A stretch of DNA of 64,000 nt from NCBI RefSeq assembly GCF_013167455.1, contig NZ_CP038328.1. One strand, written 5' to 3'. Every line of letters starts with the position of its first letter. Within the stretch, counting starts at the first letter, position 1. This DNA is from Escherichia coli O157:H7. GTDB lineage: Bacteria; Pseudomonadota; Gammaproteobacteria; Enterobacterales; Enterobacteriaceae. The position numbers and the translations under genes are program-made. The notes beneath the pieces are model-generated. The model worked only from the letters and a program-made list of their open reading frames with translations, ran no database searches and was not told the DNA's origin. Shown here in pieces: positions 9,876 through 63,062 of the stretch.

Positions 9876-10070
9876 ATGAGATATGACGATGTTAAACCAT
9901 GTCCGTTTTGTGGTTGTCCATCTGTTACGGTGAAAGCAATTTCAGGATATTACCGGGCAAAATGCAACGGATGCGAATCCCGAACTGGCTATGGTGGAAG
10001 TGAAAAAGAAGCACTCGAAAGATGGAATAAACGAACTACTGGAAATAATAATGGAGGTGTTCATGTATAA
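9876..10070 (+). CDS. ralR: RalR (restriction alleviation; type I toxin with DNase activity)
   Basis: 64 aa MRYDDVKPCPFCGCPSVTVKA...; Cys-rich. Confidence 0.75.
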   Translation: MRYDDVKPCPFCGCPSVTVKAISGYYRAKCNGCESRTGYGGSEKEALERWNKRTTGNNNGGVHV

Positions 10071-10251
10071 AATAACTGCCACTATTGAAAAAGAAGGTGG
10101 CACTCCTACTAACTGGACAAGATATTCAAAATCTAAATTAACGAAATCAGAATGCGAAAAAATGCTCTCAGGGAAAAAAGAAGCAGGCGTGTCCAGAGAG
10201 CAGAAAGTAAAGCTGATAAATTTTAATTGCGAGAAACTTCTGTCCTCGTGA
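10063..10251 (+). CDS. ydaC: YdaC-like small prophage protein
   Basis: about 62 aa MYKITATIEKEGG...; start uncertain (alternative ATG at 10051). Confidence 0.55.
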   Translation: MYKITATIEKEGGTPTNWTRYSKSKLTKSECEKMLSGKKEAGVSREQKVKLINFNCEKLLSS

Positions 10252-10350
10252 GTTGCATTATATACAAATTAAAACTTCATAGCTGATTATTAATAATCAA
10301 CATCAGGCGTCAATTTCAGTCTAACATTGGCGCCTGCCAGAGGTGATGCG

Positions 10351-10566
10351 ATGGCACAAGTAATCTTTAATGAAGAGTGGATGGTTGAATACGGCCTGAT
10401 GCTTCGCACTGGTCTGGGGGCCAGACAAATTGAAGCATACCGCCAGAACTGTTGGGTGGAGGGCTTCCACTTCAAACGAGTATCTCCTTTAGGTAAGCCA
10501 GACAGCAAACGAGGGATTATCTGGTACAACTATCCAAAGATAAATCAGTTTATCAAAGACTCATGA
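10351..10566 (+). CDS. xisR: excisionase
   Basis: 71 aa immediately upstream of the integrase gene. Confidence 0.7.
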
Positions 10567-10567
10567 T

Positions 10568-11803
10568 ATGTCTAAATTACCAACAGGTGTCGAGATTAGA
10601 GGTAGAAACATTCGCATCTGGTTCATGTTTCGAGGAAAACGATGTCGGGAAACATTAAAAGGCTGGGAGATTACAAACAGTAATATTAAAAAGGCCGGAA
10701 ATTTAAGAGCGCTGATAGTTCATGAAATAAACTCCGGTGAATTTGAGTATTTAAGACGTTTTCCCCAGTCCAGCACTGGGGCAAAAATGGTGACAACGAG
10801 AGTCATAAAAACGTTCGGGGAGCTTTGTGATATCTGGACAAAAATTAAAGAGACAGAGTTAACAACAAACACAATGAAGAAAACGAAATCACAATTAAAA
10901 ACACTCAGAATAATAATTTGTGAAAGTACCCCGATATCATATATTCGTTATAGCGATATCTTAAACTACCGGAATGAACTGCTGCATGGAGAAACGCTTT
11001 ACCTGGATAATCCAAGATCCAACAAAAAAGGAAGAACCGTGCGCACAGTTGATAACTATATCGCCCTGCTCTGTTCGCTGTTACGTTTTGCGTATCAGTC
11101 GGGATTTATATCAACCAAACCATTTGAAGGAGTAAAAAAATTACAGCGAAACAGAATAAAGCCTGACCCGTTATCTAAAACAGAATTCAATGCATTAATG
11201 GAAAGTGAAAAAGGACAGAGCCAAAACTTGTGGAAATTTGCCGTTTACTCCGGGCTTCGTCACGGGGAACTGGCAGCTCTGGCGTGGGAGGATGTGGATT
11301 TCGAGAAGGGAACTGTGAATGTCAGAAGAAACCTGACGATACTGGATATGTTCGGTCCCCCAAAAACAAATGCCGGGATCCGGACAGTAACATTACTGCA
11401 GCCTGCTCTTGAAGCACTGAAGGTGCAATACAAACTGACCGGGCATCATCGCAAAAGCGAAATCACCTTTTATCATCGGGAGTACGGCAGAACCGAAAAG
11501 CAAAAACTGCATTTTGTTTTCATGCCCAGGGTGTGTAACGGAAAACAGAAACCTTATTACTCGGTAAGCAGTTTGGGGGCAAGGTGGAATGCAGCAGTAA
11601 AACGTGCTGGTATTCGCCGCCGTAATCCGTACCATACGCGGCATACTTTTGCCTGCTGGCTGTTGACGGCAGGAGCGAACCCGGCATTTATAGCCAGCCA
11701 GATGGGGCATGAAACTGCGCAGATGGTGTATGAAATTTACGGTATGTGGATTGATGATATGAACGACGAACAGGTAGCCATGTTGAATGCGCGGCTATCG
11801 TAG
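10568..11803 (+). CDS. intR: tyrosine integrase
   Basis: 411 aa; C-terminal catalytic region with R...HxxR...Y pattern (HTRHTFA); adjacent to ttcA. Confidence 0.9.
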   Translation: MSKLPTGVEIRGRNIRIWFMFRGKRCRETLKGWEITNSNIKKAGNLRALIVHEINSGEFEYLRRFPQSSTGAKMVTTRVIKTFGELCDIWTKIKETELTTNTMKKTKSQLKTLRIIICESTPISYIRYSDILNYRNELLHGETLYLDNPRSNKKGRTVRTVDNYIALLCSLLRFAYQSGFISTKPFEGVKKLQRNRIKPDPLSKTEFNALMESEKGQSQNLWKFAVYSGLRHGELAALAWEDVDFEKGTVNVRRNLTILDMFGPPKTNAGIRTVTLLQPALEALKVQYKLTGHHRKSEITFYHREYGRTEKQKLHFVFMPRVCNGKQKPYYSVSSLGARWNAAVKRAGIRRRNPYHTRHTFACWLLTAGANPAFIASQMGHETAQMVYEIYGMWIDDMNDEQVAMLNARLS

Positions 11804-11854
11804 TTGCAAAGTTTGCCCCCAATTTGCCCCATTTAGTACCAGAGAACCGAAATA

Positions 11855-12790
11855 ATGCAAGAAAATCAAAAGAATACGAAGAAAGAACAATACAACCTGA
11901 ACAAATTACAAAAACGCCTGCGTCGTAACGTGGGCGAAGCCATTGCTGACTTCAATATGATTGAAGAAGGCGATCGCATCATGGTTTGCCTCTCCGGGGG
12001 TAAAGACAGCTATACCATGCTGGAGATTCTGCGCAATTTGCAGCAAAGCGCGCCAATCAATTTTTCGCTGGTGGCTGTTAACCTCGATCAAAAGCAACCG
12101 GGCTTCCCGGAACACGTTCTGCCCGAGTATCTTGAAAAGCTGGGCGTTGAGTACAAGATTGTTGAAGAGAACACTTACGGTATCGTGAAAGAGAAGATTC
12201 CAGAGGGCAAAACCACTTGCTCACTGTGTTCTCGGCTACGTCGCGGTATCCTTTATCGCACCGCAACGGAACTGGGGGCGACGAAGATCGCGTTGGGCCA
12301 CCATCGTGACGATATCCTGCAAACGTTGTTCTTAAATATGTTCTACGGCGGCAAGATGAAAGGTATGCCTCCGAAACTGATGAGCGATGATGGCAAACAT
12401 ATCGTTATTCGTCCGCTGGCCTACTGCCGCGAGAAAGATATTCAGCGATTTGCCGATGCAAAAGCGTTCCCGATTATTCCGTGCAACCTGTGCGGTTCAC
12501 AGCCTAACCTGCAACGTCAGGTGATTGCTGACATGTTGCGTGACTGGGATAAACGTTATCCAGGGCGTATCGAGACGATGTTCAGCGCGATGCAGAATGT
12601 GGTGCCGTCGCATCTGTGCGATACCAACCTGTTCGATTTCAAAGGCATCACCCACGGTTCTGAAGTGGTTAACGGGGGTGATCTGGCGTTTGATCGCGAA
12701 GAGATCCCACTACAACCGGCGGGCTGGCAGCCAGAAGAAGATGAAAATCAGTTGGATGAGTTACGGCTGAATGTGGTTGAAGTGAAATAA
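11855..12790 (+). CDS. ttcA: tRNA 2-thiocytidine synthase (PP-loop ATPase)
   Basis: 311 aa; SGGKDS PP-loop motif and CxxC pairs. Confidence 0.9.
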
Positions 12791-19062: not shown

Positions 19063-19237
19063 GACGCCACCGATAACCGTTATTTATCAGACCAAAGAAA
19101 CTGGCATCTACTTTAATGCAGATGATTGTGTCAGGGTAATTTATGAACGGTTAAAACTGTGAAAAATCAGTTAGTGATAAGTAAAAACTATCGCTACGTG
19201 AACCGGGTCACACTTTTTACTGATGACGGGAAAGGTT

Positions 19238-20548
19238 ATGGAGTCTTTGAATCAATTTGTTAATTCGCTTGCCCCAAAATTATCGCACTGGCGACGTGAT
19301 TTTCATCACTATGCAGAGTCTGGCTGGGTGGAATTCCGCACTGCCACCCTTGTTGCGGAAGAATTGCAGCAGCTCGGCTACTCACTGGCGCTGGGCCGCG
19401 AAGTAGTTAATGAAAATAGCCGGATGGGACTACCTGATGAACTCACTCTACAACGCGAATTCGAGCGCGCTCGTCAACAGGGTGCGCTAGCACAATGGAT
19501 TGCGGCTTTTGAAGGTGGTTTCACGGGTATCGTCGCCACCCTGGATACCGGTCGCCCCGGTCCGGTGATGGCTTTCCGTGTCGATATGGACGCGCTGGAT
19601 CTCAGTGAAGAGCAGGATGTCAGCCATCGCCCCTACCGCGACGGTTTTGCGTCATGTAACGCCGGAATGATGCATGCCTGTGGTCATGATGGGCATACCA
19701 CCATTGGGCTTGGGCTGGCGCATACCCTTAAACAATTCGAGTCCGGACTACATGGCGTCATCAAACTGATTTTTCAGCCTGCAGAGGAAGGTACGCGTGG
19801 CGCGCGGGCGATGGTCGATGCAGGTGTCGTAGATGATGTTGATTATTTTACTGCCGTGCACATTGGCACTGGCGTACCTGCGGGCACCGTGGTGTGCGGC
19901 AGTGATAATTTTATGGCAACCACCAAATTTGACGCGCACTTCACCGGTACCGCCGCTCACGCAGGCGCAAAACCAGAAGACGGTTACAATGCCTTGTTGG
20001 CGGCAGCACAAGCCACTCTTGCACTGCATGCAATCGCCCCGCACAGCGAAGGAGCTTCCAGAGTAAACGTGGGCGTTATGCAGGCAGGAAGCGGTCGTAA
20101 CGTTGTTCCTGCCTCGGCGTTGCTGAAAGTGGAAACACGCGGGGCCAGCGACGTCATTAATCAATATGTTTTTGACCGTGCTCAGCAAGCGATTCAGGGC
20201 GCAGCAACCATGTATGGTGTCGGCGTTGAAACTCGTCTGATGGGTGCAGCTACCGCCAGTTCTCCTTCGCCGCAATGGGTCGCATGGTTGCAAAGTCAGG
20301 CGGCTCAGGTCGCGGGGGTCAATCAGGCCATTGAACGTGTTGAAGCGCCTGCGGGTTCCGAAGATGCCACATTAATGATGGCCCGCGTGCAGCAACATCA
20401 AGGGCAAGCCTCCTACGTGGTGTTTGGCACACAGCTGGCGGCAGGTCATCACAACGAAAAATTCGATTTTGACGAGCAGGTTCTCGCTATTGCCGTCGAA
20501 ACGCTGGCGCGCACCGCGCTCAATTTTCCCTGGACGCGAGGTATCTGA
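19238..20548 (+). CDS. abgA: p-aminobenzoyl-glutamate hydrolase subunit A (M20 peptidase family)
   Basis: 436 aa from MESLNQ. Confidence 0.9.
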   Translation: MESLNQFVNSLAPKLSHWRRDFHHYAESGWVEFRTATLVAEELQQLGYSLALGREVVNENSRMGLPDELTLQREFERARQQGALAQWIAAFEGGFTGIVATLDTGRPGPVMAFRVDMDALDLSEEQDVSHRPYRDGFASCNAGMMHACGHDGHTTIGLGLAHTLKQFESGLHGVIKLIFQPAEEGTRGARAMVDAGVVDDVDYFTAVHIGTGVPAGTVVCGSDNFMATTKFDAHFTGTAAHAGAKPEDGYNALLAAAQATLALHAIAPHSEGASRVNVGVMQAGSGRNVVPASALLKVETRGASDVINQYVFDRAQQAIQGAATMYGVGVETRLMGAATASSPSPQWVAWLQSQAAQVAGVNQAIERVEAPAGSEDATLMMARVQQHQGQASYVVFGTQLAAGHHNEKFDFDEQVLAIAVETLARTALNFPWTRGI

Positions 20549-21993: not shown

Positions 21994-22851
21994 CAACAAC
22001 AACGCAAACACAACAACCGAGGAATGCCCATGAGTATGTCATCCATACCGTCGTCCTCCCAATCCGGGAAGCTCTATGGCTGGGTCGAAAGAATTGGTAA
22101 CAAGGTTCCCCATCCTTTTTTGCTCTTTATCTATTTGATTATCGTACTCATGGTGACGACGGCAATTTTGTCGGCCTTTGGCGTCAGTGCGAAAAACCCG
22201 ACCGATGGTACGCCGGTGGTGGTGAAAAACCTGCTCAGTGTGGAAGGATTACACTGGTTTTTACCCAATGTTATTAAAAACTTTAGCGGTTTTGCTCCAC
22301 TTGGTGCGATCCTGGCGCTGGTTTTAGGTGCCGGTCTGGCGGAGCGCGTCGGCTTACTGCCAGCACTAATGGTTAAAATGGCATCGCATGTTAATGCCCG
22401 CTACGCCAGTTATATGGTGCTGTTTATTGCTTTTTTCAGCCACATTTCTTCCGATGCGGCGTTAGTGATCATGCCACCGATGGGTGCGCTGATTTTTCTG
22501 GCGGTGGGCAGGCATCCAGTTGCAGGTTTACTGGCTGCCATTGCAGGCGTAGGTTGCGGCTTTACGGCTAATTTACTGATTGTCACAACCGACGTGTTGC
22601 TGTCGGGGATCAGCACGGAAGCGGCAGCTGCGTTCAATCCGCAAATGCACGTCAGTGTAATTGATAACTGGTATTTTATGGCCAGCTCCGTAGTCGTACT
22701 GACGATTGTTGGCGGCCTGATAACCGACAAAATCATCGAGCCACGGTTAGGTCAATGGCAGGGAAACAGCGATGAGAAACTGCAGACATTGACCAAATGA
22801 ACCGCCCCGGAAATCCTGGAGACTAAACTCCCTGAGAAAGAGGTAAACAGG

Positions 22852-23178
22852 ATGACTAAAAATACTCGTTTTTCCCCCGAAGTCCGTCAGCGGGCGATTC
22901 GTATGGTTCTGGAAAGTCAGGATGAATATGACTCACAGTGGGCGGCAATTTGTTCCATTGCCCCAAAGATTGGCTGTACGCCGGAGACTCTGCGTGTCTG
23001 GGTTCGCCAGCATGAGCGGGATACCGGGGGCGGTGATGGTGGGCTCACCAGCGCTGAACGTCAGCGTCTGAAAGAGCTGGAACGTGAAAATCGTGAACTG
23101 CGCCGCAGTAACGATATCCTTCGCCAGGCTTCCGCTTATTTTGCGAAGGCGGAGTTCGACCGCCTCTGGAAAAAATGA
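22852..23178 (+). CDS. IS3-family OrfA (HTH plus leucine zipper)
   Basis: 108 aa [22 protein letters not shown]...; ends at A-AAA-AAT slippery region. Confidence 0.9.
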
Positions 23179-23828
23179 TGCCACTGCTGGATAAGCTGCG
23201 TGAGCAGTACGGGGTCGGACCGGTATGCAGCGAACTGCATATTGCCCCGTCAACGTATTACCATTGTCAGCAACAGCGACATCATCCGGATAAACGCAGT
23301 GCCCGTGCGCAGCACGACGACTGGCTGAAGAGAGAGATACAGCGCGTATACGATGAAAATCATCAGGTGTACGGTGTGCGTAAAGTCTGGCGTCAGTTGT
23401 TACGGGAAGGAATCAGGGTGGCCAGATGTACAGTGGCACGTCTCATGGCGGTTATGGGACTTGCCGGTGTTCTCCGGGGTAAATGGGCCCGTCGTCCGTC
23501 TGGCACCATCCATCACAGCGATAAAGGCTCTCAGTATGTGTCACTGGCCTATACGGAGCGACTAAAAGAAGCCGGATTACTGGCATCAACAGGGAGTACA
23601 GGCGACTCGTATGACAACGCGATGGCTGAGAGCATCAATGGTCTTTACAAAGCGGAGGTAATACACCGTAAGAGCTGGAAAAACCGTGCAGAAGTGGAAC
23701 TGGCCACACTAACGTGGGTGGACTGGTATAACAATCGACGATTGCTGGGAAGGCTGGGCCATACTCCTCCGGCAGAAGCAGAAAAAGCTTATTATGCTTC
23801 CATCGGAAACGATGATCTGGCAGCCTGA
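23175..23828 (+). CDS. IS3-family OrfB transposase, internally deleted (first DDE Asp missing)
   Basis: 217-aa ORF; retains HSDKGSQY and DNAMAES motifs but no W..D.TY motif upstream. Confidence 0.75.
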
Positions 23829-24641
23829 GTTCACAGATAAAACACTCTCCAGGAAACCCGGGGCGGTTCAAAAGTCAGCGTTTTGGTTTACGCATAGCAG
23901 GTGTCGTATCGCTACTTTTTATTGCTGCGATTGCGCTGATGGTGATCCCGGAAAACGGGATATTGCGCGATCCGATTAATCACACCGTGATGCCATCACC
24001 CTTTATTAAAGGTATCGTGCCACTGATCATTCTTTTTTTCTTTGTTGTCTCGCTGGCTTATGGCATCGCTACCCGCACAATTCGACGTCAGGCGGATTTA
24101 CCGCATTTAATGATTGAACCGATGAAAGAGATGGCGGGATTTATCGTGATGGTTTTTCCCCTCGCCCAGTTTGTCGCCATGTTTAACTGGAGCAACATGG
24201 GGAAATTCATCGCCGTGGGGCTGACCGATATCCTGGAAAGTTCAGGGCTTAGCGGCATCCCGGCGTTTGTCGGTCTGGCGTTGCTTTCCTCTTTCTTATG
24301 CATGTTTATCGCCAGCGGTTCCGCAATCTGGTCGATTCTGGCCCCCATTTTCGTACCAATGTTTATGCTACTTGGCTTTCACCCGGCATTTGCGCAAATC
24401 CTCTTTCGTATTGCCGACTCATCCGTATTGCCTTTAGCGCCAGTATCTCCTTTTGTTCCACTGTTTCTTGGATTCCTGCAACGCTACAAACCAGACGCGA
24501 AACTGGGTACTTACTATTCGTTAGTCTTGCCCTATCCGCTTATCTTTTTGGTGGTATGGCTGCTGATGTTGCTGGCGTGGTATCTTGTGGGCCTGCCGAT
24601 AGGTCCGGGTATTTACCCACGTTTGTCTTAAGAGAGAACGG

Positions 24642-51760: not shown

Positions 51761-51777
51761 GTGTAACCAGGTGAATC

Positions 51778-51936
51778 ATTTGATACCGACAAGGGTTTTA
51801 GTGAAAGGAGGTGAAATCACCTGTAAGATGCTGAAATAAAACAGGTGATGTATACTTCGGACGGAAAACTCTTTTTGATACCGACTGCTCAACAAATAGT
51901 CAAAAGATCAAAAAACGGCGACACATTTGATACTGC
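51778..51936 (+). repeat. candidate transposase end-binding sites (attL-type direct repeats)
   Basis: TTTGATACCGAC at 51778 and 51873, TTTGATACTGC at 51925. Confidence 0.5.
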
Positions 51937-52117
51937 TAATTTACCCTTAAAATCTTCTTCAAAACATCTTCAAACTGCCAAAATGCTCACATAATCGATC
52001 TAACTATAATCAGTATGATAATCATCATGAATTACTATTCAATAGCGTGATTATCTTGGGATGAGTCATATGATCTCTATATGTATTTACAGCACCACCT
52101 CATGATAGCGATGGCGC

Positions 52118-52729
52118 TTAACCAACAACATTTTTCTTTACTGTCACTGCCCCTGATTCCTGGGTGGCGTTATTGCTCGAGTTGTACTTCTCAATAACGC
52201 GCAAAATCTCTTTGTCTGTTTCTTCACTTCCCGCCATTCCTATCTTTATTGCATTTTTTAGTACGGGACGTAATGGCAAGGCATCAATGATGCTTTCTAC
52301 CGCATCCTGGCTGATTGTAGATGTATTCATTGCTGCCAGCCTGACAAGGTTGTTAGTACCTTCTCGCCTGATGAATGTAAGGATTAATTGCTTCTCTTGG
52401 GGGCTTAGAGAGCTAAGCGCCTGATCAATACCCGAACCTGAATCGCAATTGTTTTCGATTTTTCCGCATTCATCTTCGTTCTTGCCTGTGGCCAACCATT
52501 CGAGTGAACAATTACAGGCTTTAGCTATTAAGGCCAGTTTATCCAAAGGAGGGAAGTTTTTCCCCTTCCTGTAATTTCTTACTGTGGCTTCAGATAGTCC
52601 ACAAAGGGTCGCCAGTTCGACGTTTGTCATGTTTCCCATAGCCATAGCTAAGCGTTCTGAAAATCGGTTTATTCCTTCCATATCAATAAACCGTTCCGCA
52701 CTGGATACGGTTTTTTCTGCCTTATCCAT
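52118..52729 (-). CDS. prophage repressor (Mu c position), XRE-type HTH
   Basis: 203 aa; HTH VELATLCGLSEATVRNYRKG; AGGGGG SD; leftward at prophage left end. Confidence 0.8.
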   Translation of the reverse strand: MDKAEKTVSSAERFIDMEGINRFSERLAMAMGNMTNVELATLCGLSEATVRNYRKGKNFPPLDKLALIAKACNCSLEWLATGKNEDECGKIENNCDSGSGIDQALSSLSPQEKQLILTFIRREGTNNLVRLAAMNTSTISQDAVESIIDALPLRPVLKNAIKIGMAGSEETDKEILRVIEKYNSSNNATQESGAVTVKKNVVG

Positions 52730-52885
52730 ATAACCCCCTATAAAACAAAGAAATTATCAACATCGCATTTAATTTCGATGTGCTCGCAAAAAACCGTTGA
52801 TATCGAATTATTTTGCGATTATGATTTACCTAAATCGATAACCGGTTTTGATTATCGGTTCAGGTAAACATGAGAGGATCACACA
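52730..52885. promoter_or_regulatory. repressor/ner divergent operator-promoter region
   Basis: repeated GATTAT/CGATAA motifs and inverted repeat CGATAA-N10-TTATCG between divergent regulators. Confidence 0.45.
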
Positions 52886-53152
52886 ATGAGGGTATCCAGA
52901 CAAGCATCGAATAATTTGTTTGTTCGAGAGGGGTGTGACTGGTCTGCTAAAGCGGTATATGCAGCCCTTGAAAACAAAGGCACAGACCTCCCTGAACTGG
53001 AAAGGGAGTTAGGATTAAAAAGCGGATCAATGCGCAATGTGTTTTACCGCCAGTGCCGTAAATACGAAGCCGCCATCGCCGAAAAAATAGGGGTTGAACC
53101 TGCTGTAATCTGGCCCAGCAGATACCAGGTGGACGCCAGAGAAGTGGCTTGA
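52886..53152 (+). CDS. Ner-like DNA-binding protein
   Basis: 88 aa; C-terminal VIWPSRYQ matches the Mu Ner C-terminus as I recall it. Confidence 0.8.
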   Translation: MRVSRQASNNLFVREGCDWSAKAVYAALENKGTDLPELERELGLKSGSMRNVFYRQCRKYEAAIAEKIGVEPAVIWPSRYQVDAREVA

Positions 53153-53162
53153 TGGGGGATGT

Positions 53163-55253
53163 ATGTGGGTAACAGCAAAAGAATGTGTTGGTCTTCCTGA
53201 TTTACCAATGATGGAACATAACATTCGCCATCGACTCACAAAAGCAGCTGCGGGAAATGCAGCCATGTTACGCAAACGTAAGGGGACAAAAGCAATCGAA
53301 TTTAATATCGATTGTTTGCCTTCTGGCGCGCAACAAGTATTGCGTGAACGTTATGCCCTTCAACTGATGACGCAAAAAGCTGATGAATCACCGGCTCCGG
53401 TGGTGACAAAGGCCAGACGCTCGCCTGCCGTGGTTGATGCGGTGGAGGCATATCGCGGATCACCACAACTGATGGTTGAACGCCTTAATGCCCTGACTGA
53501 AAACCAGCGCCAGGTGGCTGATGCACGAATCGCGATCGTCAGCGAAGTGATGAAAGTCGCGCAACAACCCGGTTTCAGCTGTGCGAAAGCTATCCGGTTT
53601 ATCGTTGACAACCTGGCACGTTCGCAACTGGACGAGCGCATTGTGGCAATGGTTGAGACGGCGAACGCCAAAAAGGGAAACAGCCGTGCGTTGAGTGAAA
53701 TAACGCTGAAACGCTGGATTGCGGCCTTTAACAAGGCGCAGAACGCCGCTGAACGCCTGCTTTTACTGGCACCGGGTAAGCGCCAGGAAATAAAAGCCGA
53801 AGATATTAACTGGCTGCCCGAATTTCTGGCGCAGTATCGCCAGTCAAACGGCCGACCAATGACCGAGGCTTACGAGGATTTTGTCGCTGAATGGCAGCAC
53901 CGGCACGCTGATGAGCCTTATATGCTCGATATCATGCCGTCTTATGACACCATTCGCCGCGCAATGAAGAAACTGCCGGAAGTGGTGAAACAAAAAGGCC
54001 GGGTGACCGGCAGTGAATACCGCCAGCTTGAGGGATTCACGCGCCGCGACTGGTCCAGAATGCCGGTGAATTATGTCTGGATTGGTGACGGTCACGGCAT
54101 GAAGCTGAAATGCGCACACCCGGTTCACGGTCGGCCATTTGCACCGGAAGTGACCTTTGTTATCGACGGTGGCACGCGCTTTGTGGTGGGCTGGAGCCTT
54201 GACCTGGCTGAAAATGTTTTCGCCGTAGCCGGTGCCATACAGCACGGCATTCGCCATCACGGCAAACCGTTTCTGTATTACTCGGATAACGGCTCCGGGG
54301 AAACCGCCGACATCCTGGATAAGGAGGTTGTGGGGATACTGCCGCGACTGGGGATTAATCACCCGACCGGGATTGCCGGTAATCCGCAGGGACGAGGCAT
54401 TATCGAACGGCTTAACCGCACATTACCGATGCGCATAGCCCGTAAATACCGCACCTATTTCGGGAAAGGTGCAGATCGCGAGACGTTACGCAAAACCAAC
54501 CGCGATTTACGCTCGGCATTTACTGCCCTGCAACAGGGCAAACGGCTGAACGCCCGGCAGCAGTCAGCGATGCGTGATTTACCGTCCTGGTCTGAACTGA
54601 TTGATGCCATTCGTGACGGTGTTGAGTGGTACAACAACCGGCCGCACGATGAATTACCGGTGAAGCCGAACGGCAAGCATTACAGCCCGGCGGAGTTCAG
54701 AAAAAAACGCCTGGCGGAAGAGGACACGGAAATTGAATGGCTGTCCGATGTTGAGCTGCGGGATATGTTCCGGCCGATGGTGGAACGCCCTGTAAGACGC
54801 TGTGAAATACGCTGGCTGAATAATATTTACTACGCGCCCGAGCTGCGTGACGAGCATGGTCGTAAGGTGCTTATCAGCTATGACATTCATGATGCCGAAC
54901 GAATTACCGTACGTCGCCTGGATGGCAGCGTGATTTGCGAGGCGGTATGGGACGGTAATAAACGCGAAGCCTTCCCGGTTAGCGCGGAATACTACAAACA
55001 GCAGCAACGCCTTAAAGGCATGCGTAAACGCGCAGAGGAAAAAATCCGTGATGCCGAGGATGAGGTTGTCAACGTGCTGGAGCACAAGCCGCAGGAGCCC
55101 TGGCTGGAAAACATATACCGCCCTGTGGGTAATACGGTGACCGTTCAGCAACCGGTCGCTGACGATGAACCTGATGAAGAATACGAGCGTAATTTCCAGC
55201 GGGGATTGCAGTTGCTGGAAGCGAAATTAAAAGAAAATGACCCGCTGGCCTGA
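53163..55253 (+). CDS. MuA-like DDE transposase
   Basis: 696 aa; N-terminal W..KEC..LP..P like Mu A; candidate DDE residues in WIGDGHG, YYSDNGSG, IERLNRT. Confidence 0.9.
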   Translation: MWVTAKECVGLPDLPMMEHNIRHRLTKAAAGNAAMLRKRKGTKAIEFNIDCLPSGAQQVLRERYALQLMTQKADESPAPVVTKARRSPAVVDAVEAYRGSPQLMVERLNALTENQRQVADARIAIVSEVMKVAQQPGFSCAKAIRFIVDNLARSQLDERIVAMVETANAKKGNSRALSEITLKRWIAAFNKAQNAAERLLLLAPGKRQEIKAEDINWLPEFLAQYRQSNGRPMTEAYEDFVAEWQHRHADEPYMLDIMPSYDTIRRAMKKLPEVVKQKGRVTGSEYRQLEGFTRRDWSRMPVNYVWIGDGHGMKLKCAHPVHGRPFAPEVTFVIDGGTRFVVGWSLDLAENVFAVAGAIQHGIRHHGKPFLYYSDNGSGETADILDKEVVGILPRLGINHPTGIAGNPQGRGIIERLNRTLPMRIARKYRTYFGKGADRETLRKTNRDLRSAFTALQQGKRLNARQQSAMRDLPSWSELIDAIRDGVEWYNNRPHDELPVKPNGKHYSPAEFRKKRLAEEDTEIEWLSDVELRDMFRPMVERPVRRCEIRWLNNIYYAPELRDEHGRKVLISYDIHDAERITVRRLDGSVICEAVWDGNKREAFPVSAEYYKQQQRLKGMRKRAEEKIRDAEDEVVNVLEHKPQEPWLENIYRPVGNTVTVQQPVADDEPDEEYERNFQRGLQLLEAKLKENDPLA

Positions 55254-55324
55254 AATAAAAAAATAACCCGAGCGGCGACTCAGGTTATTTGATTAAACAA
55301 GGTATCAAATGAGAGGTTAATAAT

Positions 55325-56257
55325 ATGACTGATATTAACGATGTAATCAAGACCATTGATGAACTTATTGATGGCGGCGTACTGACGCAGTATGCCATCG
55401 CCAGAGAGGCGGGAATTTCCGACGGCACATTATCGGCTTTCCGTAAGGGAAAATATAAAGGCGATAACGCTGCTGTGGCTGCTTCCCTGCGTTCCTGGTA
55501 TGAGAACTGGAATAAACAAAGCGCACTGCCGGAACCGCCGCAGTTTGTGGAAACGCAGACAGTCCAGGAGCTGCGCGCACTGTTTCAGGCGGTTCGTCTG
55601 ATGGGCTGTATTAACGTTATTGTGGGCGTACCGGGTGTGGGTAAAACGGCCACTGCCCGTAATTACTGCCAGGAGCAACCAAACACCTGGATGATCACCC
55701 TGTCACCCGCGCACTCCAGCGTCACGGAGTGTCTGCTGGAGCTGGCCGATGCGCTGGGGATTGATTACACCCGCGCGAACAAAGGGGCATTATCCCGCGC
55801 CATCCGCCGTCGCCTGACGGGAACGCGTGGACTGGTTATTGTGGATGAGGCGGATCATCTTGGTATTGACGGTCTGGAGCAACTCCGGGCAATTCAGGAC
55901 GCCACGGGGATCGGGATGGTGCTTATTGGTAACCCGCGCGGATTGTTTAAAGGTGGACGCCGCACCTTTGATGATTTATCGCGCCTGTTCAGCCGTCTTG
56001 CCCGTACAAAACAACTTCGCAAGGCCAAAAAGGCGGATGTGCTGGCCATTGCCAGGGCGTGGGGGATCAGTGGTGAGGCCGAGCTGGCCGTCATGCAGGC
56101 TATCGCTGAAAAGCCGGGAGCGTTACGCGTTCTGACACATACGCTTAACCAGGCGTGGCTCACCGCCAGCGGTGAAGGCGCGGCGCTGACAGAAAAACAT
56201 ATTAATGCGGCCTTTAAAGAGGTTTATACCAACCCTGAATTACTCTCACAGGTGTGA
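55325..56257 (+). CDS. MuB-like AAA+ target DNA activator
   Basis: 310 aa; Walker A GVPGVGKT, Walker B VIVDEADHL; LPEPPQFVETQTV resembles Mu B. Confidence 0.9.
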   Translation: MTDINDVIKTIDELIDGGVLTQYAIAREAGISDGTLSAFRKGKYKGDNAAVAASLRSWYENWNKQSALPEPPQFVETQTVQELRALFQAVRLMGCINVIVGVPGVGKTATARNYCQEQPNTWMITLSPAHSSVTECLLELADALGIDYTRANKGALSRAIRRRLTGTRGLVIVDEADHLGIDGLEQLRAIQDATGIGMVLIGNPRGLFKGGRRTFDDLSRLFSRLARTKQLRKAKKADVLAIARAWGISGEAELAVMQAIAEKPGALRVLTHTLNQAWLTASGEGAALTEKHINAAFKEVYTNPELLSQV

Positions 56258-56481
56258 TTATGGCGGTATTTAATATTCCTGATATTTACGGACGCTTTTA
56301 CCTGGTTAATTTCGATAACGTGAAGGTGATTTCACTGGCCGAAAATAAAGAATGTGGCGATTTACTTTTTGAATTTAATGACCGCACACGAATGGTGATA
56401 TCTGCCGGACTTGATCGAGAAGGTGCGACAGACGTTTACAGCGGAATATGCCGTTCTGTTGGTGCGAAACAAGTCAGCTAA
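56254..56481 (+). CDS. hypothetical Mu-like early protein
   Basis: 75-aa ORF coupled to B stop. Confidence 0.5.
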   Translation: MIMAVFNIPDIYGRFYLVNFDNVKVISLAENKECGDLLFEFNDRTRMVISAGLDREGATDVYSGICRSVGAKQVS

Positions 56482-56748
56482 ATGAGGTGTTATATGAATA
56501 TGCAATCCTGCGGTAACAAAATGAATTTATTCGACTCCCTGAACAGCGCGCGCCGTCTGACCGAACTTGCCGGTGCGGTACTGGAACGCAGTAAGCGCTA
56601 TCCGCAACGTTTTGCACTGAAAACCACGCCGCCGGTAGGCAACGTGCAGGGAACCGGTGAAATTGAAATCACCATACAGACCAACGGCCTGCGCCGCCGT
56701 GTGAAGGCCACCCGCATCAGCGGCTGCACGGTTTACTGGGAGGTGTGA
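56482..56748 (+). CDS. hypothetical Mu-like early protein
   Basis: 88-aa ORF in tightly packed operon. Confidence 0.5.
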   Translation: MRCYMNMQSCGNKMNLFDSLNSARRLTELAGAVLERSKRYPQRFALKTTPPVGNVQGTGEIEITIQTNGLRRRVKATRISGCTVYWEV

Positions 56749-56749
56749 G

Positions 56750-57031
56750 GTGAAAAAAAATCTCATTGCATGGGCGTGGTCGAGTGGTCTTATTGAGTTT
56801 GGTTACGTCCTGCCGGAAGGTGCATTGCCGATAGTTGCCGGAAAGCCTGCCACGGTACGGCATGTGATTGAGGTTATGGCGCGTCATGGACGTGATGAAC
56901 AGGAGCAGTTACTGGTTCCGGGGATACCGGAAGCGGTGACGGAGGAAGAAGCCTTTAATGCCATGATTCGGTTCTGCCGTGAGGTCAGACGCCGGGTCAG
57001 TTATCCAAACAGAACGAGGACCAGAGGATGA
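56750..57031 (+). CDS. hypothetical Mu-like early protein
   Basis: 93-aa ORF. Confidence 0.5.
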   Translation: MKKNLIAWAWSSGLIEFGYVLPEGALPIVAGKPATVRHVIEVMARHGRDEQEQLLVPGIPEAVTEEEAFNAMIRFCREVRRRVSYPNRTRTRG

Positions 57032-57300
57032 GTAAAGTCGTACGCATTATTTTCGAATACAAGGAGCACGTTATCCATAAAAACGCTGATGGAACAGTGC
57101 GCATGGGGGTAAGTCTGGACATACGTTCAACCGGGATAAAGCAGAAAGGTGATGGACCCGCCATGATTTTTGGGGTGGTTATGCTCGCGGAAAGCAGAGA
57201 CTTTGCTGAACTTGTGGCAATGAAAGCCAGTGCGCTCATGAAAGATATGAGCATGCGTTCCGGGGTTATTAAAGGTAATGAATTTAATCAGCAGGGGTAA
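57028..57300 (+). CDS. hypothetical Mu-like early protein (paralog pair, copy 1)
   Basis: 90 aa, begins MSKVVRIIFEYKEHV. Confidence 0.5.
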   Translation: MSKVVRIIFEYKEHVIHKNADGTVRMGVSLDIRSTGIKQKGDGPAMIFGVVMLAESRDFAELVAMKASALMKDMSMRSGVIKGNEFNQQG

Positions 57301-57304
57301 TTCC

Positions 57305-57598
57305 ATGAGCAAAGTACGCGTTATTTTTGAATTTAAGCATGTTTCGCATGACGAAAAACCGGCAGGCAATGACTGTGTTGAAGTGCATGAAAAGATTGGT
57401 GTGGATGTAAAAACAGAACGTGATACGAATAACAGGCCGACGTCACTCTGTGACGTTTATGCAAGTATTCTCCAGTATCACAGTCCTGAAATTATTCAGT
57501 TTCTCTCAGCGGAATTTCAGGCATCTGTACAGGCTTTTGGGGCGGATGCCATCATTAAACGCCACCGCGTGCATAAAGCATCAGGCACACTGCAATAA
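57305..57598 (+). CDS. hypothetical Mu-like early protein (paralog pair, copy 2)
   Basis: 97 aa, begins MSKVRVIFEFKHV. Confidence 0.5.
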   Translation: MSKVRVIFEFKHVSHDEKPAGNDCVEVHEKIGVDVKTERDTNNRPTSLCDVYASILQYHSPEIIQFLSAEFQASVQAFGADAIIKRHRVHKASGTLQ

Positions 57599-57609
57599 GG
57601 AAAAACAAA

Positions 57610-58140
57610 ATGGCAAAACGCGTTACAAAATTAAAGGCCGCAGCAGAGGCGGCACCGCAGACCCGTGAAGAGGTCAGCCGCGATATCCGCACCCTGGGCG
57701 ATATTCAGCGAGAGGCGCTGCGCCTGGAAACAGCGATGAATGATGAAGTGGCAGAAATCACCGCCCGTTATACGCCGCAGATTGAAAACCTTAAAAAAGA
57801 AATCAAAGTGCTTTTTAAGGGGATTCAGGACTGGTGCAAAACCAACCGTGATGAGCTGACGAACGGCGGCAAAACCAAAACTGCCAATCTGACCACCGGA
57901 ACGGTGTCATGGCGACTGGGGAATCCATCATGCAGCGTCAGTCGTGATGTGGAAGGTGTGATTGAAATGCTGCGCCGTATGGGCCTTGAGCGTTTTATCC
58001 GCACGAAAGAGGAAGTGAACAAGGAAGCGGTCCTGGCGGAGCCGGATGCGGTGAAAGGGATTGCCGGTATTAAGGTGAATAAAGGCGCTGAAAGTTTTTA
58101 TGTCGAGCCTTTTGAACAGGACGCCGGACTGAATAAATAA
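57610..58140 (+). CDS. gam: Gam-like host-nuclease inhibitor (DNA end-binding)
   Basis: 176 aa; extensive similarity to Mu Gam as recalled (RLETEMND...ANRDELTNGGK.KTANL.TG.VSWR). Confidence 0.9.
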   Translation: MAKRVTKLKAAAEAAPQTREEVSRDIRTLGDIQREALRLETAMNDEVAEITARYTPQIENLKKEIKVLFKGIQDWCKTNRDELTNGGKTKTANLTTGTVSWRLGNPSCSVSRDVEGVIEMLRRMGLERFIRTKEEVNKEAVLAEPDAVKGIAGIKVNKGAESFYVEPFEQDAGLNK

Positions 58141-58237
58141 CACCGCATTAATCAATTAAATATCACTTCGTTTTAATTATGGCGCTCGCGTCAGGGGACT
58201 GCCTGCGCCTGTAAACTGAAAATAAGGAACAGGATAT

Positions 58238-58780
58238 ATGGCATATTTTTATTTCAAATTAGACCGTGTGCAGACAAATAAATATTTCACCAAATATCAA
58301 CAGACTGTTTTACCGCTACGCAACAGTATTCTTCGGGCATTACTGAAAAATACAGGCGCTGCCGGATTGCGCTTAAAGCCGTTTGCCATGGACGTAATCA
58401 GTGAGTTTTATTTTTCTGGTGCTCTGCCTGCGGGCTGGCGTAAGCGCGATGATGTGGCTTTTGTCGGGGACGGACCGTGCTTTATTGCCAGACCTGATGA
58501 GTCATGCCCTGAAGGACCGGCGATTGCCGCAATGATTGAAGCCGCTGAACGCGAGTTAAGAAAGCGTCCTGATTTCCTTGTCTGGCTCTGTGAAAAGCTG
58601 GGGGTAATGAGAATCCCCTCCATGTTTAACATGGACTCCTGGTGGACCCCGTCGCTCTCCCGTGATGCCCTGTGCGTGGTGTTTAAAGTAGGCGCTTATG
58701 GCAGGGAAATAAAAGGGGGTATTCCTGAAGAATGCCAGGAGATTAAACATTCTGAATATGTGGCGCTGACGGAGGAATAA
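58238..58780 (+). CDS. hypothetical Mu-like early protein
   Basis: 180-aa ORF. Confidence 0.55.
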   Translation: MAYFYFKLDRVQTNKYFTKYQQTVLPLRNSILRALLKNTGAAGLRLKPFAMDVISEFYFSGALPAGWRKRDDVAFVGDGPCFIARPDESCPEGPAIAAMIEAAERELRKRPDFLVWLCEKLGVMRIPSMFNMDSWWTPSLSRDALCVVFKVGAYGREIKGGIPEECQEIKHSEYVALTEE

Positions 58781-58783
58781 TTC

Positions 58784-59317
58784 ATGATTGATGCAAAAGT
58801 GCTTGAAGGGGTTAAAAACTGGCTGAGTATTTACGGGCGTCTGACCTGCGGCATTCTGGCTGAAAAAATGAATATGCCGCCATCCTCGATGGTTTATTTT
58901 CTGCGTGATGCGGTCGATGCCGGGGTGCTGACGGAATGTAACGGTTTTTATGATATTCCGCGTCCCCGCCCGGTGCAGCCGGTTCGTCGCAAATGCAGCC
59001 AGGAAGGTGCGGCTGATGATGTTCAGTGGTGCAGCTTCAGAAAATCCCTGCCGTGGATTGAGGGGCATGATATTCCGTCAATGGCGTGGGAATTTGCTCA
59101 GGGCGTTCTGACCTGTGAAACCGTTTATGTGGTGGCTGAAGTTGATGAGCAGGCCATGAAAGAAGGCGTGCCCCAGTTTGTGATGGCGTATATCGACATA
59201 CGCCTGGGTGTCATTATCTGCGGTTTAAGCGGCTGGAATATCACCTCGCGCGTTCTGCGTTACCTGATTGTTGACCGGACGGCCGCGCCTGCTGGGATAT
59301 CTGCGGAGGTGGCGTAA
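58784..59317 (+). CDS. hypothetical Mu-like early protein
   Basis: 177-aa ORF. Confidence 0.55.
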   Translation: MIDAKVLEGVKNWLSIYGRLTCGILAEKMNMPPSSMVYFLRDAVDAGVLTECNGFYDIPRPRPVQPVRRKCSQEGAADDVQWCSFRKSLPWIEGHDIPSMAWEFAQGVLTCETVYVVAEVDEQAMKEGVPQFVMAYIDIRLGVIICGLSGWNITSRVLRYLIVDRTAAPAGISAEVA

Positions 59318-59832
59318 TGTTCTTTAAAACATCAAACCCTTCCGCGCTGGCCGCGTGGCAAAAATATCAGCAGGACTGCCAGAAAGTTAAGGATGAGGCA
59401 AAACGCCTTGAGGCCGTGCTGAATGTTGCGTGCCGGTCGGTATTTGTATCCGGTATCAGTGGCTTTTGTTTTAAAGGGCTGCGCTTTATGGATGACAAAT
59501 ATCCTTTTCATCGCGACTTATGGCGAAAACCGACTGCGTCGAATGGCTGGAGCTGCACACCGCGCACATCACGTATTCCCAAAGCCCTGCGCGTTGCCTC
59601 TGACGAACTTAACAGTCTGTGGCGTGAATATTCGCCCGTCACGTATGCCAGAACCGATGCACTGTTGTTCTGGCTGGGTATTGATTTCTCGGCAATCATG
59701 TTTGGCCCTGTGAAGTGGTTCTGCGTTGACGATGTGATTTACCTTGAGTGCGGCGTAAAACCCGCAAATCAGAAAATGACCGAAATTCTGTCTGATGAGT
59801 TTTATGCTGCTGAAAAGCGAGTCAGGGGGTGA
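59317..59832 (+). CDS. hypothetical Mu-like early protein
   Basis: 171-aa ORF, start overlaps upstream stop. Confidence 0.55.
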   Translation: MFFKTSNPSALAAWQKYQQDCQKVKDEAKRLEAVLNVACRSVFVSGISGFCFKGLRFMDDKYPFHRDLWRKPTASNGWSCTPRTSRIPKALRVASDELNSLWREYSPVTYARTDALLFWLGIDFSAIMFGPVKWFCVDDVIYLECGVKPANQKMTEILSDEFYAAEKRVRG

Positions 59833-59835
59833 TGT

Positions 59836-60387
59836 ATGATGATTTTACAACCCATGGGGCGAAAAGGTCAGGCACCTGCTCATGTCCGTGCGTGGACACC
59901 TGAAGAAGATGCGCTGCTGATTGCGCTTTATCCATCCACCCCGGTTAAGGATATTGCTGTCAGGGTAAAAAGAAGTTTCTGGGGTGTACATAACCGGATT
60001 GTTTTATTACGCGGTACTTACCCGGAGTTGCTCAAATGCAAACGTCCAAGATTTAAACATGATGAAGATAAATTTATCCGAAAAAATGCCAGAACGATGA
60101 CCGGTAAGCAAATAGGAGAATATCTGGGGCGAGACCGGGATTCTGTCCACAATCGGGCGCGATATATTGGCGTAAGCATGAAAAAATACGGAGAATTGCT
60201 GCCCTTCACCCGTATACCTGACGATGATGTTCATCTTATTCGTGAATTACGGGATGCTGAATCACCACGACGTCTTACCTTCCGGGAAATAGGCGAGAAA
60301 TTTGAATTATCCGAGAGTACGGTGAATTTTATTTATCACCATCGCCGGACTGCCGAGGACGCTGTATTACGGGAGTTAACGCCATGA
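59836..60387 (+). CDS. putative DNA-binding protein with three tandem HTH-like repeats
   Basis: 183 aa; three ~45-aa repeats each with an acidic patch then a T/S.x.EIG....R...V.NR-like helix pattern. Confidence 0.5.
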   Translation: MMILQPMGRKGQAPAHVRAWTPEEDALLIALYPSTPVKDIAVRVKRSFWGVHNRIVLLRGTYPELLKCKRPRFKHDEDKFIRKNARTMTGKQIGEYLGRDRDSVHNRARYIGVSMKKYGELLPFTRIPDDDVHLIRELRDAESPRRLTFREIGEKFELSESTVNFIYHHRRTAEDAVLRELTP

Positions 60388-60569
60388 TAAAGAGACTTGT
60401 ATTTTTCGCAATTTTCGTTCCGGTGTTGGGGGTTGGTTTTATATTTGCGATTACAGGAAACCTGTCCATGATGCCAGATATTTGGTTCTTTATCAGGATG
60501 TCGCTCTTCCTGTTTATTATGAATCTTCTTATCGACATATATATCCGTATTACTGGAAAACATAAATGA
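60384..60569 (+). CDS. small hydrophobic membrane protein
   Basis: 61 aa, two predicted TM segments. Confidence 0.5.
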   Translation: MIKRLVFFAIFVPVLGVGFIFAITGNLSMMPDIWFFIRMSLFLFIMNLLIDIYIRITGKHK

Positions 60570-60940
60570 GAAAAATCACGTCCTTGTCAGAGTTACAGGA
60601 GATGAATATGAGTATTGAATTAAGATCGTCTTATGAGTATCGCAAATTTCTTATCGCCGGAGGCATGAAACCGGAAGATGTGGAAAAAATCGTTTCTTTT
60701 ATGGATAAGGAATGTGATAAGCGGGATGTGTCAGAAATTATTATGGATGACATGATTCTGGATTCAGTCGTGGCGTTAAGTCCGTTATGGATTGTGCATT
60801 CTCTTGCGGAAATTGCCAAAGGCACCGATAAACAGGCAGCTGTTGCTGCCCTTCAGACGCTTAATGAAATGCGTATATCTCCACGCCCGACATTAATACA
60901 GATGATTTTGTCCAGTATGGAGGATAAAGCAAATGAATAG
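60566..60940 (+). CDS. hypothetical protein
   Basis: 124-aa ORF coupled to neighbours. Confidence 0.5.
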   Translation: MRKITSLSELQEMNMSIELRSSYEYRKFLIAGGMKPEDVEKIVSFMDKECDKRDVSEIIMDDMILDSVVALSPLWIVHSLAEIAKGTDKQAAVAALQTLNEMRISPRPTLIQMILSSMEDKANE

Positions 60941-61130
60941 TCTACCCGCTGGATGGGCGCGCCCTCTGATGGCTAAGAAGCATCATTTTTTTAAAACTGG
61001 CGATAATATCAGTATATGTAGGCGGTGGTTATATCTGGCTCATAATCGCGAGCCGGATACATTTGAAAGCCCTGATGACTGTGCCGAATGTCGCAGAAGA
61101 CTGAATAAGGAGAAAGATAATGGACAGTAG
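60933..61130 (+). CDS. hypothetical small Cys-containing protein
   Basis: 65 aa with ICRRW...DDCAECRRR. Confidence 0.4.
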   Translation: MNSLPAGWARPLMAKKHHFFKTGDNISICRRWLYLAHNREPDTFESPDDCAECRRRLNKEKDNGQ

Positions 61131-61416
61131 TTCGCAGTTGTTCTGGTGTTTATATATCACATCGTTTTTCGGTGCATTCGTCATTACACGATGGCTGTGC
61201 CGGAAAGTTATCAGTATTTTTCATAAAAAATACCTGATTGGGCTGGCGGCGACTTCTCTGATTAATGCACTTGCCAGATATCATAAGGGGGAATACTACT
61301 CAAGAATAAAAACTGATGATGGTTTTAATATTTTTGTGATTCCTCCGGAGTATCGGGTTCAGCTCGATCGGGAAAGTAATATCTATCATATCAGCAGGAG
61401 TGTTGATACAGCATGA
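61120..61416 (+). CDS. hypothetical protein with N-terminal TM segment
   Basis: 98-aa ORF. Confidence 0.45.
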   Translation: MDSSSQLFWCLYITSFFGAFVITRWLCRKVISIFHKKYLIGLAATSLINALARYHKGEYYSRIKTDDGFNIFVIPPEYRVQLDRESNIYHISRSVDTA

Positions 61417-61922
61417 GAGGGAAACTGATATCCGCTATTCATGTGGCAAAGCGCGAGCTTGCCCTAGATGATGAGACCTACACATTCGTACTACTGGCAG
61501 CCACCGGCAAAACCAGCTGCCGGGATATGTCACCCGGTGAGTTATCCCGCGTGCTGGATGTTTTCAAAAAACGCGGTTTTAAAGTGCGTCAGAAACCGGT
61601 TAACCGGGCCTTAAAACCGGGTACGGTGACCGCCAAAATTCGCGCCATCTGGAAAGTGATGCACCGGCAGGGCTTTATCTCTGATGGTGCGGAAACCGCT
61701 CTTAACCGCTGGGTGAAATCGCAGACGGCCGCGCAGAACGGCGGCGAAGGTGTGGCAAACTGGCAGTGGCTGGAGCAACACCCCGCCCTGGCCTCAGATG
61801 TGCTGGAGCGTCTCAAGCGATGGCACCGCCGCAAAATGCTGGCCGCGATGGGAATGCCCGAACGCACGCTGATGGGGTATGACGCCGTTTGCAGGCAGTA
61901 TGAAAAATCACTTCCCCGTTAA
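61413..61922 (+). CDS. GemA (Mu gp16)-like regulatory protein
   Basis: 169 aa; N-terminal ISAIHVAKRELALDDETY pattern typical of Mu-like gp16 as recalled. Confidence 0.75.
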   Translation: MRGKLISAIHVAKRELALDDETYTFVLLAATGKTSCRDMSPGELSRVLDVFKKRGFKVRQKPVNRALKPGTVTAKIRAIWKVMHRQGFISDGAETALNRWVKSQTAAQNGGEGVANWQWLEQHPALASDVLERLKRWHRRKMLAAMGMPERTLMGYDAVCRQYEKSLPR

Positions 61923-61991
61923 CCCCAAATCCCGCCACAACGCGGGATTTTTATTTTAAACTTACCGGGAACGCGAGAACCGGAGGCTGAT

Positions 61992-62417
61992 ATGGCAGAA
62001 ACTCAGATGAGCATGTTTGGTGGTGACAGTGAGCAACTGCACGCCCTTATCGACCGCCTTGATGACATCCCTGATGATGTTCTCAAAAAGAACTGGCCGC
62101 GGACCCTGTCAGAACTGGTTGAAGTCACCGGCGCAGAACTTCAGCGTCAGGGGATTGAGCCGGTACTGGCCGGTAAACTGGCACGCAAGGTGGCTGCGGC
62201 TCAGGCAGCCTATATGGGCGGACGGGGTTATTACCTGCCGGTCGGGGAATCTCTCTTTGCCGAGCTGCGAAACAATGAGATATTTTCGCGCTGGGACCGG
62301 GGCGAGAAAATTGAATCCCTTCGCCGCCATTACCGGATGTCAGAAACCCAGATTTATACCGTCATACGCGAACAGCGCCGTCTGCATCTGGCAAGAACGC
62401 AACCGCCACTTTTCTGA
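61992..62417 (+). CDS. Mor-like middle-operon transcriptional activator
   Basis: 141 aa; position after gemA; C-terminal HTH-like SETQIYTVIREQRR. Confidence 0.75.
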   Translation: MAETQMSMFGGDSEQLHALIDRLDDIPDDVLKKNWPRTLSELVEVTGAELQRQGIEPVLAGKLARKVAAAQAAYMGGRGYYLPVGESLFAELRNNEIFSRWDRGEKIESLRRHYRMSETQIYTVIREQRRLHLARTQPPLF

Positions 62418-62488
62418 TATTCCGCAAAGCCTGCCGCCTCTCCTTCACCGTTACGCTGACTCAGAGAACATCATGAGACAGCGTAACA

Positions 62489-62989: not shown

Positions 62990-63062
62990 ACCGCTTCTGG
63001 CGACCGCTCATGATAGCGCTGCTGTGTGCGGTACTGCTGTTACGGGGTGTCCTGTGGCTGCG

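Follow-up and report, generated by a model that had tools for sequence, protein, structure and literature searches.

The DNA analysed here, referred to throughout as the window, is a stretch of 64,000 nucleotides (64 kb) from Escherichia coli O157:H7, in which the abgT gene is interrupted by a shortened copy of the insertion sequence IS629. The two abgT halves are followed by ogt and fnr. The features of the locus are, in order of position:

22024 to 22797, plus strand: abgT 5' fragment; position 22030 is equivalent to the first base of the start codon in K-12, the fragment ends in the left AAA, and one G is absent between 22794 and 22795
22795 to 22797, no strand: left copy of the AAA target-site duplication; the empty K-12 site is ACCGAAAGTCAG
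22798 to 23870, plus strand: IS629/IS1203 with a 237-bp internal deletion, 1073 bp, inserted in abgT
22798 to 22822, plus strand: left terminal inverted repeat, matching the right repeat at 22 of 25 positions
22852 to 23178, plus strand: orfA, 108 aa, intact, same as in full-length copies
23133 to 23249, plus strand: ALIL pseudoknot RF01497, 121.5 bits (gathering score 50)
23170 to 23175: A6 slippery run
23175 to 23828, plus strand: shortened orfB, 217 aa instead of 296
23483 to 23484, no strand: deletion junction; IS629 nt 687-923 are absent between the two bases
23846 to 23870, minus strand: right terminal inverted repeat
23857, plus strand: IS nt 1297, here a C, as in the allele of prophage Sp4
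23871 to 24631, plus strand: abgT 3' fragment, beginning with the right AAA copy (23871-23873), with the reading frame from 23873

The general architecture of the element is clearly that of the IS3 family. Specifically, the 25-bp inverted repeats are imperfect and begin TG...CA, and the sequence TGAACCGCCCCGG is present at both element ends; in the 64-kb window it has exactly two matches, at 22798-22810 on the plus strand and 23858-23870 on the minus strand, where 0.11 would be expected by chance. The layout for -1 frameshifting is also in place: orfA and orfB overlap at 23175-23178, and an A6 run is combined with a downstream pseudoknot, the match to the ALIL model RF01497 being full-length. 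This pseudoknot is an IS3-family signal stimulating programmed -1 frameshifting. At the isoform level, the 1073 retained nucleotides are 100% identical to copies annotated as IS629/IS1203 in Sakai and EDL933. The element thus has the same inverted repeats, 3-bp duplication, OrfA, A6 run, ALIL pseudoknot and abgT site as IS629 (isoforms IS1203 and IS3411) of these two strains. What its OrfAB does not contain is a complete DDE core and, judged by its sequence, the window element is a defective IS629 derivative, not an autonomous member of the group.

A reading of the window made earlier from the sequence alone (hereafter, the sequence-only reading) had described a 1073-bp element between inverted repeats, flanked by AAA; the ends are confirmed by the matches to TGAACCGCCCCGG, and the duplication by comparison with the uninterrupted gene. 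The empty site of K-12 reads ...TTG ACC GAA AGT CAG..., with a single GAAAG, and therefore the AAA found on both sides of the element is a true 3-bp duplication, within the 3-4 bp of the IS3 family. The same junctions in FRIK1989, EDL933 and Sakai read ACCGAAA[IS]AAAGTCAG, a clean AAA duplication. In the window, the sequence is ACCAAA[IS]AAAGTCAG, so that one G, present in FRIK1989, EDL933, Sakai and K-12, is absent three bases upstream of the element. This accounts for the one-base offset between the host frames that had been noticed, and attributed either to a 2-bp target duplication or to an extra indel: the offset is real and the indel is the missing G, while the 2-bp duplication is ruled out by the alignment with FRIK1989 and EDL933 and by the empty K-12 site. 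When the IS and one AAA are removed in silico and the G is restored, AbgT is a 508-aa protein with one substitution (Q283E) with respect to K-12; when the G is not restored, a stop is reached at codon 264. The frame offset therefore reflects either the loss of one further nucleotide or an error in the consensus, and the gene was dead already. If the G is truly missing and this is no sequencing error, precise excision of the IS would not restore abgT.

The inactivation of abgT proposed by the sequence-only reading holds, as the element splits the gene into two fragments, and abgT is dead with or without the deletion in IS629. The interrupted gene is annotated as a pseudogene in Sakai, where the IS genes are ECs_1918/1919, and IS629 is found at the same abgT site in 93 complete genomes. 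For these two reasons, the abgT::IS629 insertion is old and ancestral in the O157:H7 lineage.

The extent of the deletion was defined by using as a reference the EDL933 copy of IS629, which is inserted at this very position of abgT, the alignment to a reference copy having been proposed by the sequence-only reading. This partner is 1310 bp long, which agrees with the length given there for IS629, and the alignment shows a single 237-bp gap between 23483 and 23484, corresponding to IS nt 687-923. The gap equals 79 codons and is in frame, exactly as anticipated for a junction near 23483. Only three differences from EDL933 emerge from this alignment: the 237-bp gap, a C for A at 23857, and the G absent between 22794 and 22795. 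In addition, the alignment allows one placement of the gap only, which means that there is zero microhomology at the junction.

The deletion removes OrfB residues K104-L182, KVRTTISRKAVAAGDRVNRQFVAERPDQLWVADFTYVSTWQGFVYVAFIIDVFAGYIVGWRVSSSMETTFVLDALEQAL, including LWVADFTY with D136. The shortened OrfB retains HTH_21, the second aspartate D195 (HHSDKGSQY) and the glutamate E231 (AMAES), in line with the prediction that the first DDE motif, W..D.TY, was lost while the second Asp and the Glu were kept. In the full-length protein, 59 residues separate D136 from D195 and 36 residues separate D195 from E231, which is the spacing of the IS3-family D-D-E. A phmmer search of full-length OrfB against PDB sequences, run to find an integrase structure onto which the catalytic residues could be mapped, gave no match; these residues were placed through their positions in the Pfam rve and NCBIfam profiles and through the motifs W..D.TY, HSD..Q and E. 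The rve domain matches residues 127-223 of full OrfB over model positions 2-101, and the window OrfB over model positions 60-101 only, positions 2-59 falling in the deleted part. Likewise, the NCBIfam IS3-transposase profile NF033516 (369 positions) matches the full OrfAB end to end, whereas it matches the shortened fusion in two separate stretches, the first of which covers profile positions 1-185. Compared with IS629 of Sakai and EDL933, the window copy therefore lacks nt 687-923 and, with them, K104-L182 and the first catalytic Asp, even though OrfA, as had been noted, is untouched. Since the OrfAB fusion is devoid of this Asp and of about the N-terminal half of the integrase core, the element would be unable to catalyse its own transposition, in agreement with the sequence-only reading, which considered it probably transposition-defective unless complemented in trans.

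The closest complete genome to the window is that of FRIK1989 (NZ_CP111101.1), from which positions 1-51761 differ by two substitutions and a one-base indel. From 51762 to its end the window consists of a Mu-like prophage inserted in ycjO, which FRIK1989 does not have at that position. The best matches listed for this prophage are 99.0-99.3% identical, and FRIK1989 is not among the matches listed; the prophage/ycjO junction was found in no complete RefSeq E. coli genome. A variant of the Rac-like prophage is common, in the genome collection, only to the window and FRIK1989. The window is therefore from a different isolate than FRIK1989, set apart by the Mu-like prophage and the SNPs, and belongs to the same sublineage. 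Except for the features described here, the window has the same backbone around the IS (20 kb on the right and about 11 kb on the left) as EDL933 and Sakai, and for this reason backbone SNPs do not place the window among the abgT::IS629 genomes.

Starting from the 93 genomes with IS629 in abgT, the deleted form was found only in FRIK1989 among the matches listed, the others being full length. In related genomes, such as EDL933, Sakai and many other O157:H7 strains (1310 bp), the orthologous site holds the full-length, unconverted allele. The deleted abgT copy has the same orientation, site and AAA duplication as the full-length IS629 in abgT, and it is present there in two isolates, the window strain and FRIK1989.

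The deletion is by no means private to abgT. The 1073-bp sequence is 100% identical, including the junction and the C at nt 1297, to the copy that Sakai carries in its prophage Sp4, which is annotated as two 'IS1203 partial' repeat regions with an IS629 transposase, ECs_1089/ECs_1090. The deletion itself is as the sequence-only reading described it, and what could not be seen from the window is that the same allele is already present in Sp4. The two copies are the same base for base and differ in location and in flanks: the Sakai Sp4 copy has no target duplication (GAT and TTA flanks), in contrast with the ancestral AAA of the abgT copy. We then searched 5426 complete E. coli genomes with a 40-nt junction probe (window 23464-23503), which does not seed on full-length copies. 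The probe was found in 101 genomes, almost all of which have a single match (106 places in total), and the single copy of the roughly 100 O157 genomes is presumably the one at the Sp4 position. Outside chromosomes, the probe matched just one sequence, an EDL933 record of 286 kb with a plasmid label, and no phage record.

FRIK1989 has two junctions. The second lies in an Sp4-like prophage at serT, between a pchA-like regulator and a SASA esterase, with the flanks found in Sakai; it is inverted with respect to the abgT copy, from which about 660 kb separate it, and is identical to the window element at 1073 of 1073 positions. The abgT copy of FRIK1989 is likewise 100% identical to the window element. 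The putative donor allele is thus retained, unchanged, in FRIK1989, the genome of the window strain itself having been read over the 64 kb.

A second marker is provided by nt 1297, which is C in the window, in FRIK1989 and in Sp4, and A in the abgT copies of EDL933 and Sakai, as read directly. The other genomes listed with IS629 in abgT, with the exception of FRIK1989, FDAARGOS_293 and 146N4, have one mismatch (99.8%) over this stretch, which suggests that they also carry A. FDAARGOS_293 and 146N4 have a full-length IS629 with C at nt 1297 beside the abgT 3' half; both are rearranged, and the left flank of that IS629 is a truncated prophage integrase. In view of these two copies, the ancestral nt 1297 of the sublineage may have been either A or C; the same applies to the immediate ancestor, FRIK1989 being the only genome of the collection with the prophage variant of the window.

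All together, these data are best explained, and in our judgement probably so, by ectopic gene conversion from the Sp4 copy into the old abgT::IS629. According to this model, a full-length IS629 would have been present in abgT since early in the O157:H7 lineage, and its interior would have been overwritten by the 237-bp-deletion allele of Sp4 through non-reciprocal homologous recombination between two IS copies that, in FRIK1989, lie inverted and about 660 kb apart. The product retains OrfA and the frameshift signal along with its two inverted repeats, encodes an OrfAB without the first Asp, and would be non-autonomous; it could still be bound, moved or excised by the transposase of full-length copies and the IS-excision enhancer. 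The model rests on the ancestral nature of the site, on the donor kept in FRIK1989, on the identical junction without any repeat and on the shared C at nt 1297. This nucleotide is 13 bp from the IS end, and a resident copy with A would imply a conversion tract extending almost to the end of the homology.

The first alternative to be considered is that the same 237 bp were lost again inside the resident abgT copy. The absence of microhomology makes a second identical deletion very improbable: the end points are base-identical in all copies, with no flanking direct repeat that could have guided them, and nt 1297 of the window is that of the Sp4 allele, not the usual one of abgT. An independent loss finds some room in a Stx2a-prophage copy of TW14588, described below, in which the deletion is combined with the A at nt 1297 seen in other genomes at that site, a combination that loss in situ would also give. 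On balance, we regard recurrence of the deletion as extremely unlikely.

A second alternative, to which we also assign a very small probability, is an artefact of assembly or polishing, by which the abgT copy would truly be full length and the deleted sequence would have been misplaced by the assembler. It is an uncomfortable coincidence that a single study, with a pipeline of Nanopore R9.4.1 reads, Flye 2.7 and Pilon (bioRxiv 10.1101/2022.09.30.510420), produced both FRIK1989 and TW14588, which make up half of the four genomes carrying extra deleted copies. Nevertheless, ordinary long reads span a 1.3-kb repeat, and the window, a different isolate by its Mu-like prophage in ycjO and two SNPs, has the deleted allele in abgT as well. 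The other two genomes, NJS001 and STEC799, come from other laboratories and agree with each other.

The same allele was found at further loci, its copy number ranging from one to three per genome, with extra deleted copies in four genomes (FRIK1989, TW14588, NJS001 and STEC799). TW14588 has three junctions, one of which, in a copy flanked by a CTTT duplication, maps to a DUF6645 gene that lies downstream of stx2a. This Stx2a-prophage site is occupied by IS629 in 67 genomes, and the copy is full length in every other genome listed besides TW14588. At this site nt 1297 is A in TW14588 (deleted) and in strain 3384 (full length), and C in FORC_044. The nucleotide therefore segregates at two orthologous insertion sites, a pattern that transposition does not produce and that conversion or recurrent mutation can. 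The TW14588 copy can be considered a case parallel to that of abgT, in which the A at nt 1297 fits a conversion tract ending inside the element.

A different situation was observed in NJS001, a pig isolate, and STEC799, where the deleted allele lies beside the ure cluster with a TAT duplication of its own. The exact TAT site is empty in the three genomes read, 2009C-4687, Z1834 and OkiPb01688, in all of which IS629 is inserted elsewhere in the vicinity, and no full-length IS629 was seen at this ure-adjacent site in the comparison genomes read. By its sequence context, this insertion hints at mobilisation in trans, and it is the only such hint; it may also reflect an earlier full-length insertion that was later converted to the deleted allele.

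Mobilisation in trans could in principle account for abgT as well, if the full-length copy had been lost there, for example by IEE-assisted precise excision, and the deleted element had re-inserted at the same target. Replacement of the whole element would explain directly why all of it, including nt 1297 so close to its end, matches the Sp4 allele, and the empty TAT sites indicate that the allele may transpose. This scenario demands, however, the same nucleotide, orientation and 3-bp duplication as the ancestral insertion of the 93 genomes, and two rare events rather than one. IS3-family elements have only a weak target preference. We thus consider re-insertion at abgT highly unlikely, and return to gene conversion as the preferred explanation. 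Taking the loci together, most of the spread of the deleted allele in this genome collection concerns sites already held by full-length copies, which points to recombination. From the sequences compared, at least two further resident IS629 copies, each in a different strain, appear to have received the Sp4 allele, which may also have transposed once.

With regard to the residual activity of the element, IS3-family members (IS911, IS2 and IS3 being the models) follow a copy-out-paste-in pathway via a circle, and O157 genomes have from 14 to 39 IS629 places each. On these grounds, the ends of the window element would remain substrates for OrfAB supplied by full-length copies, and the element is probably still excisable with the help of IEE. 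It would also still make OrfA and a truncated OrfAB with the DNA-binding and multimerisation regions. A broader hypothesis is that the 237-bp-deletion allele is a slowly spreading non-autonomous IS629 variant, propagated by conversion and by transposition in trans, with products that are possibly dominant-negative; we hold this to be unlikely. If it were true, OrfA and the core-less OrfAB could reduce the activity of IS629 in O157:H7, much like the repression of P elements by KP elements. The allele resembles MITE-like elements, or internally deleted elements of the P or Ac/Ds type, in having intact ends, an inactivated transposase, autonomous copies in the same genome and several loci. It differs from MITE-like elements in that most of its spread is at sites with full-length copies, the single site of NJS001 and STEC799 suggesting transposition.

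The element is already known in kind, since the deletion is present and annotated in reference genomes, and little new information is gained; defective IS copies in long-standing pseudogenes are routine and of little consequence for biology at large. A full-text literature search for IS629 together with gene conversion or internal deletion retrieved no paper describing this allele, and the main text of Rump et al. 2011 (PMC3271280) gives the Sp4 IS629 sites only as 'ND'. The distribution of the allele over abgT and the Stx2a prophage, together with the segregation of nt 1297 at two orthologous sites, directly shows recombination between IS629 copies, and it follows that the identity between IS copies is not simply readable as recent transposition. 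The case thus illustrates how IS copies exchange sequence, and does not represent a novel type of element. In practical terms, IS629 insertion sites serve in O157 strain typing (IS-printing), and unexpected amplicons could result in such assays when the element at a conserved site is shorter by 237 bp.

At nucleotide 1297 of IS629 (position 23857 of the window), 14 nt from the right end, the copies read, L014 and L015 among them, show an A/C polymorphism, which segregates between strains at two orthologous sites, namely abgT and the DUF6645 gene of the Stx2a prophage. Such a pattern at orthologous sites cannot be generated by transposition, and it suggests that IS629 copies have repeatedly exchanged sequence.

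The deleted form of IS629 is also found in Sp4, a prophage of Sakai, and at the counterpart of this site in FRIK1989, the complete genome closest to the window:

4001-5073 of the extracted locus L001: deleted IS629 in Sakai Sp4, flanked by ...GCGGAT and TTAATT...
2070259-2071331 of FRIK1989 (locus L020): counterpart of the Sakai Sp4 copy

Reading of the flanks in both genomes revealed no target-site duplication around the Sp4 copy, which suggests that it took part in a flanking deletion or recombination event once inserted. Searches with the deletion junction identified three matches in TW14588 (NZ_CP111095.1). One was placed in the Stx2a prophage (L006), while the other two presumably correspond to the Sp4 copy and to one further copy. 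The sole plasmid-labelled match (positions 39541-39580) was NZ_CP124741.1, a 286,775-bp EDL933 record classed as non-mobilizable in PLSDB; our guess is that it represents a piece of chromosome mislabelled as a plasmid.

In FDAARGOS_293 and 146N4, IS629 adjoins only the 3' half of abgT:

19078-20387 in both L008 and L009, the loci extracted from these strains: IS629 bordering the 3' half of abgT

To the left of the element, a truncated prophage integrase replaces the 5' half of the gene, an arrangement that is an IS-associated rearrangement. In addition, nucleotides 14-16 at the left end of the 146N4 element read GTT instead of AAA, and owing to this GTT the left and right repeats are identical over all 25 nt.

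Outside the element, the following features and substitutions were mapped on the window:

1-12000: Rac-like prophage with recE, recT, ralR, xisR and intR, adjoining ttcA
3097: G/A substitution between the window and FRIK1989, ydaT-like gene region
50397: G/T substitution between the window and FRIK1989, ycjP
51762-64000: Mu-like prophage inserted in ycjO

These two substitutions, plus an indel close to IS629, are the only differences from FRIK1989 over 51.7 kb, and FRIK1989 alone shares the Rac-like prophage variant at 100% identity. EDL933 and Sakai differ from this prophage by about 130 substitutions, all within 7884 to approximately 12000, and show no differences from the backbone at 12000-43990.

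The Mu-like prophage encodes a Mu transposase C-terminal domain protein, an AAA ATPase and HTH regulators. Its left end, TGTAACCAGG..., directly follows ...CAACGCG of ycjO, a gene that alignment showed to be unbroken in FRIK1989. The prophage/ycjO junction was absent from all complete RefSeq E. coli genomes searched; among the matches listed, the best counterparts of the prophage elsewhere show 99.0-99.3% identity.
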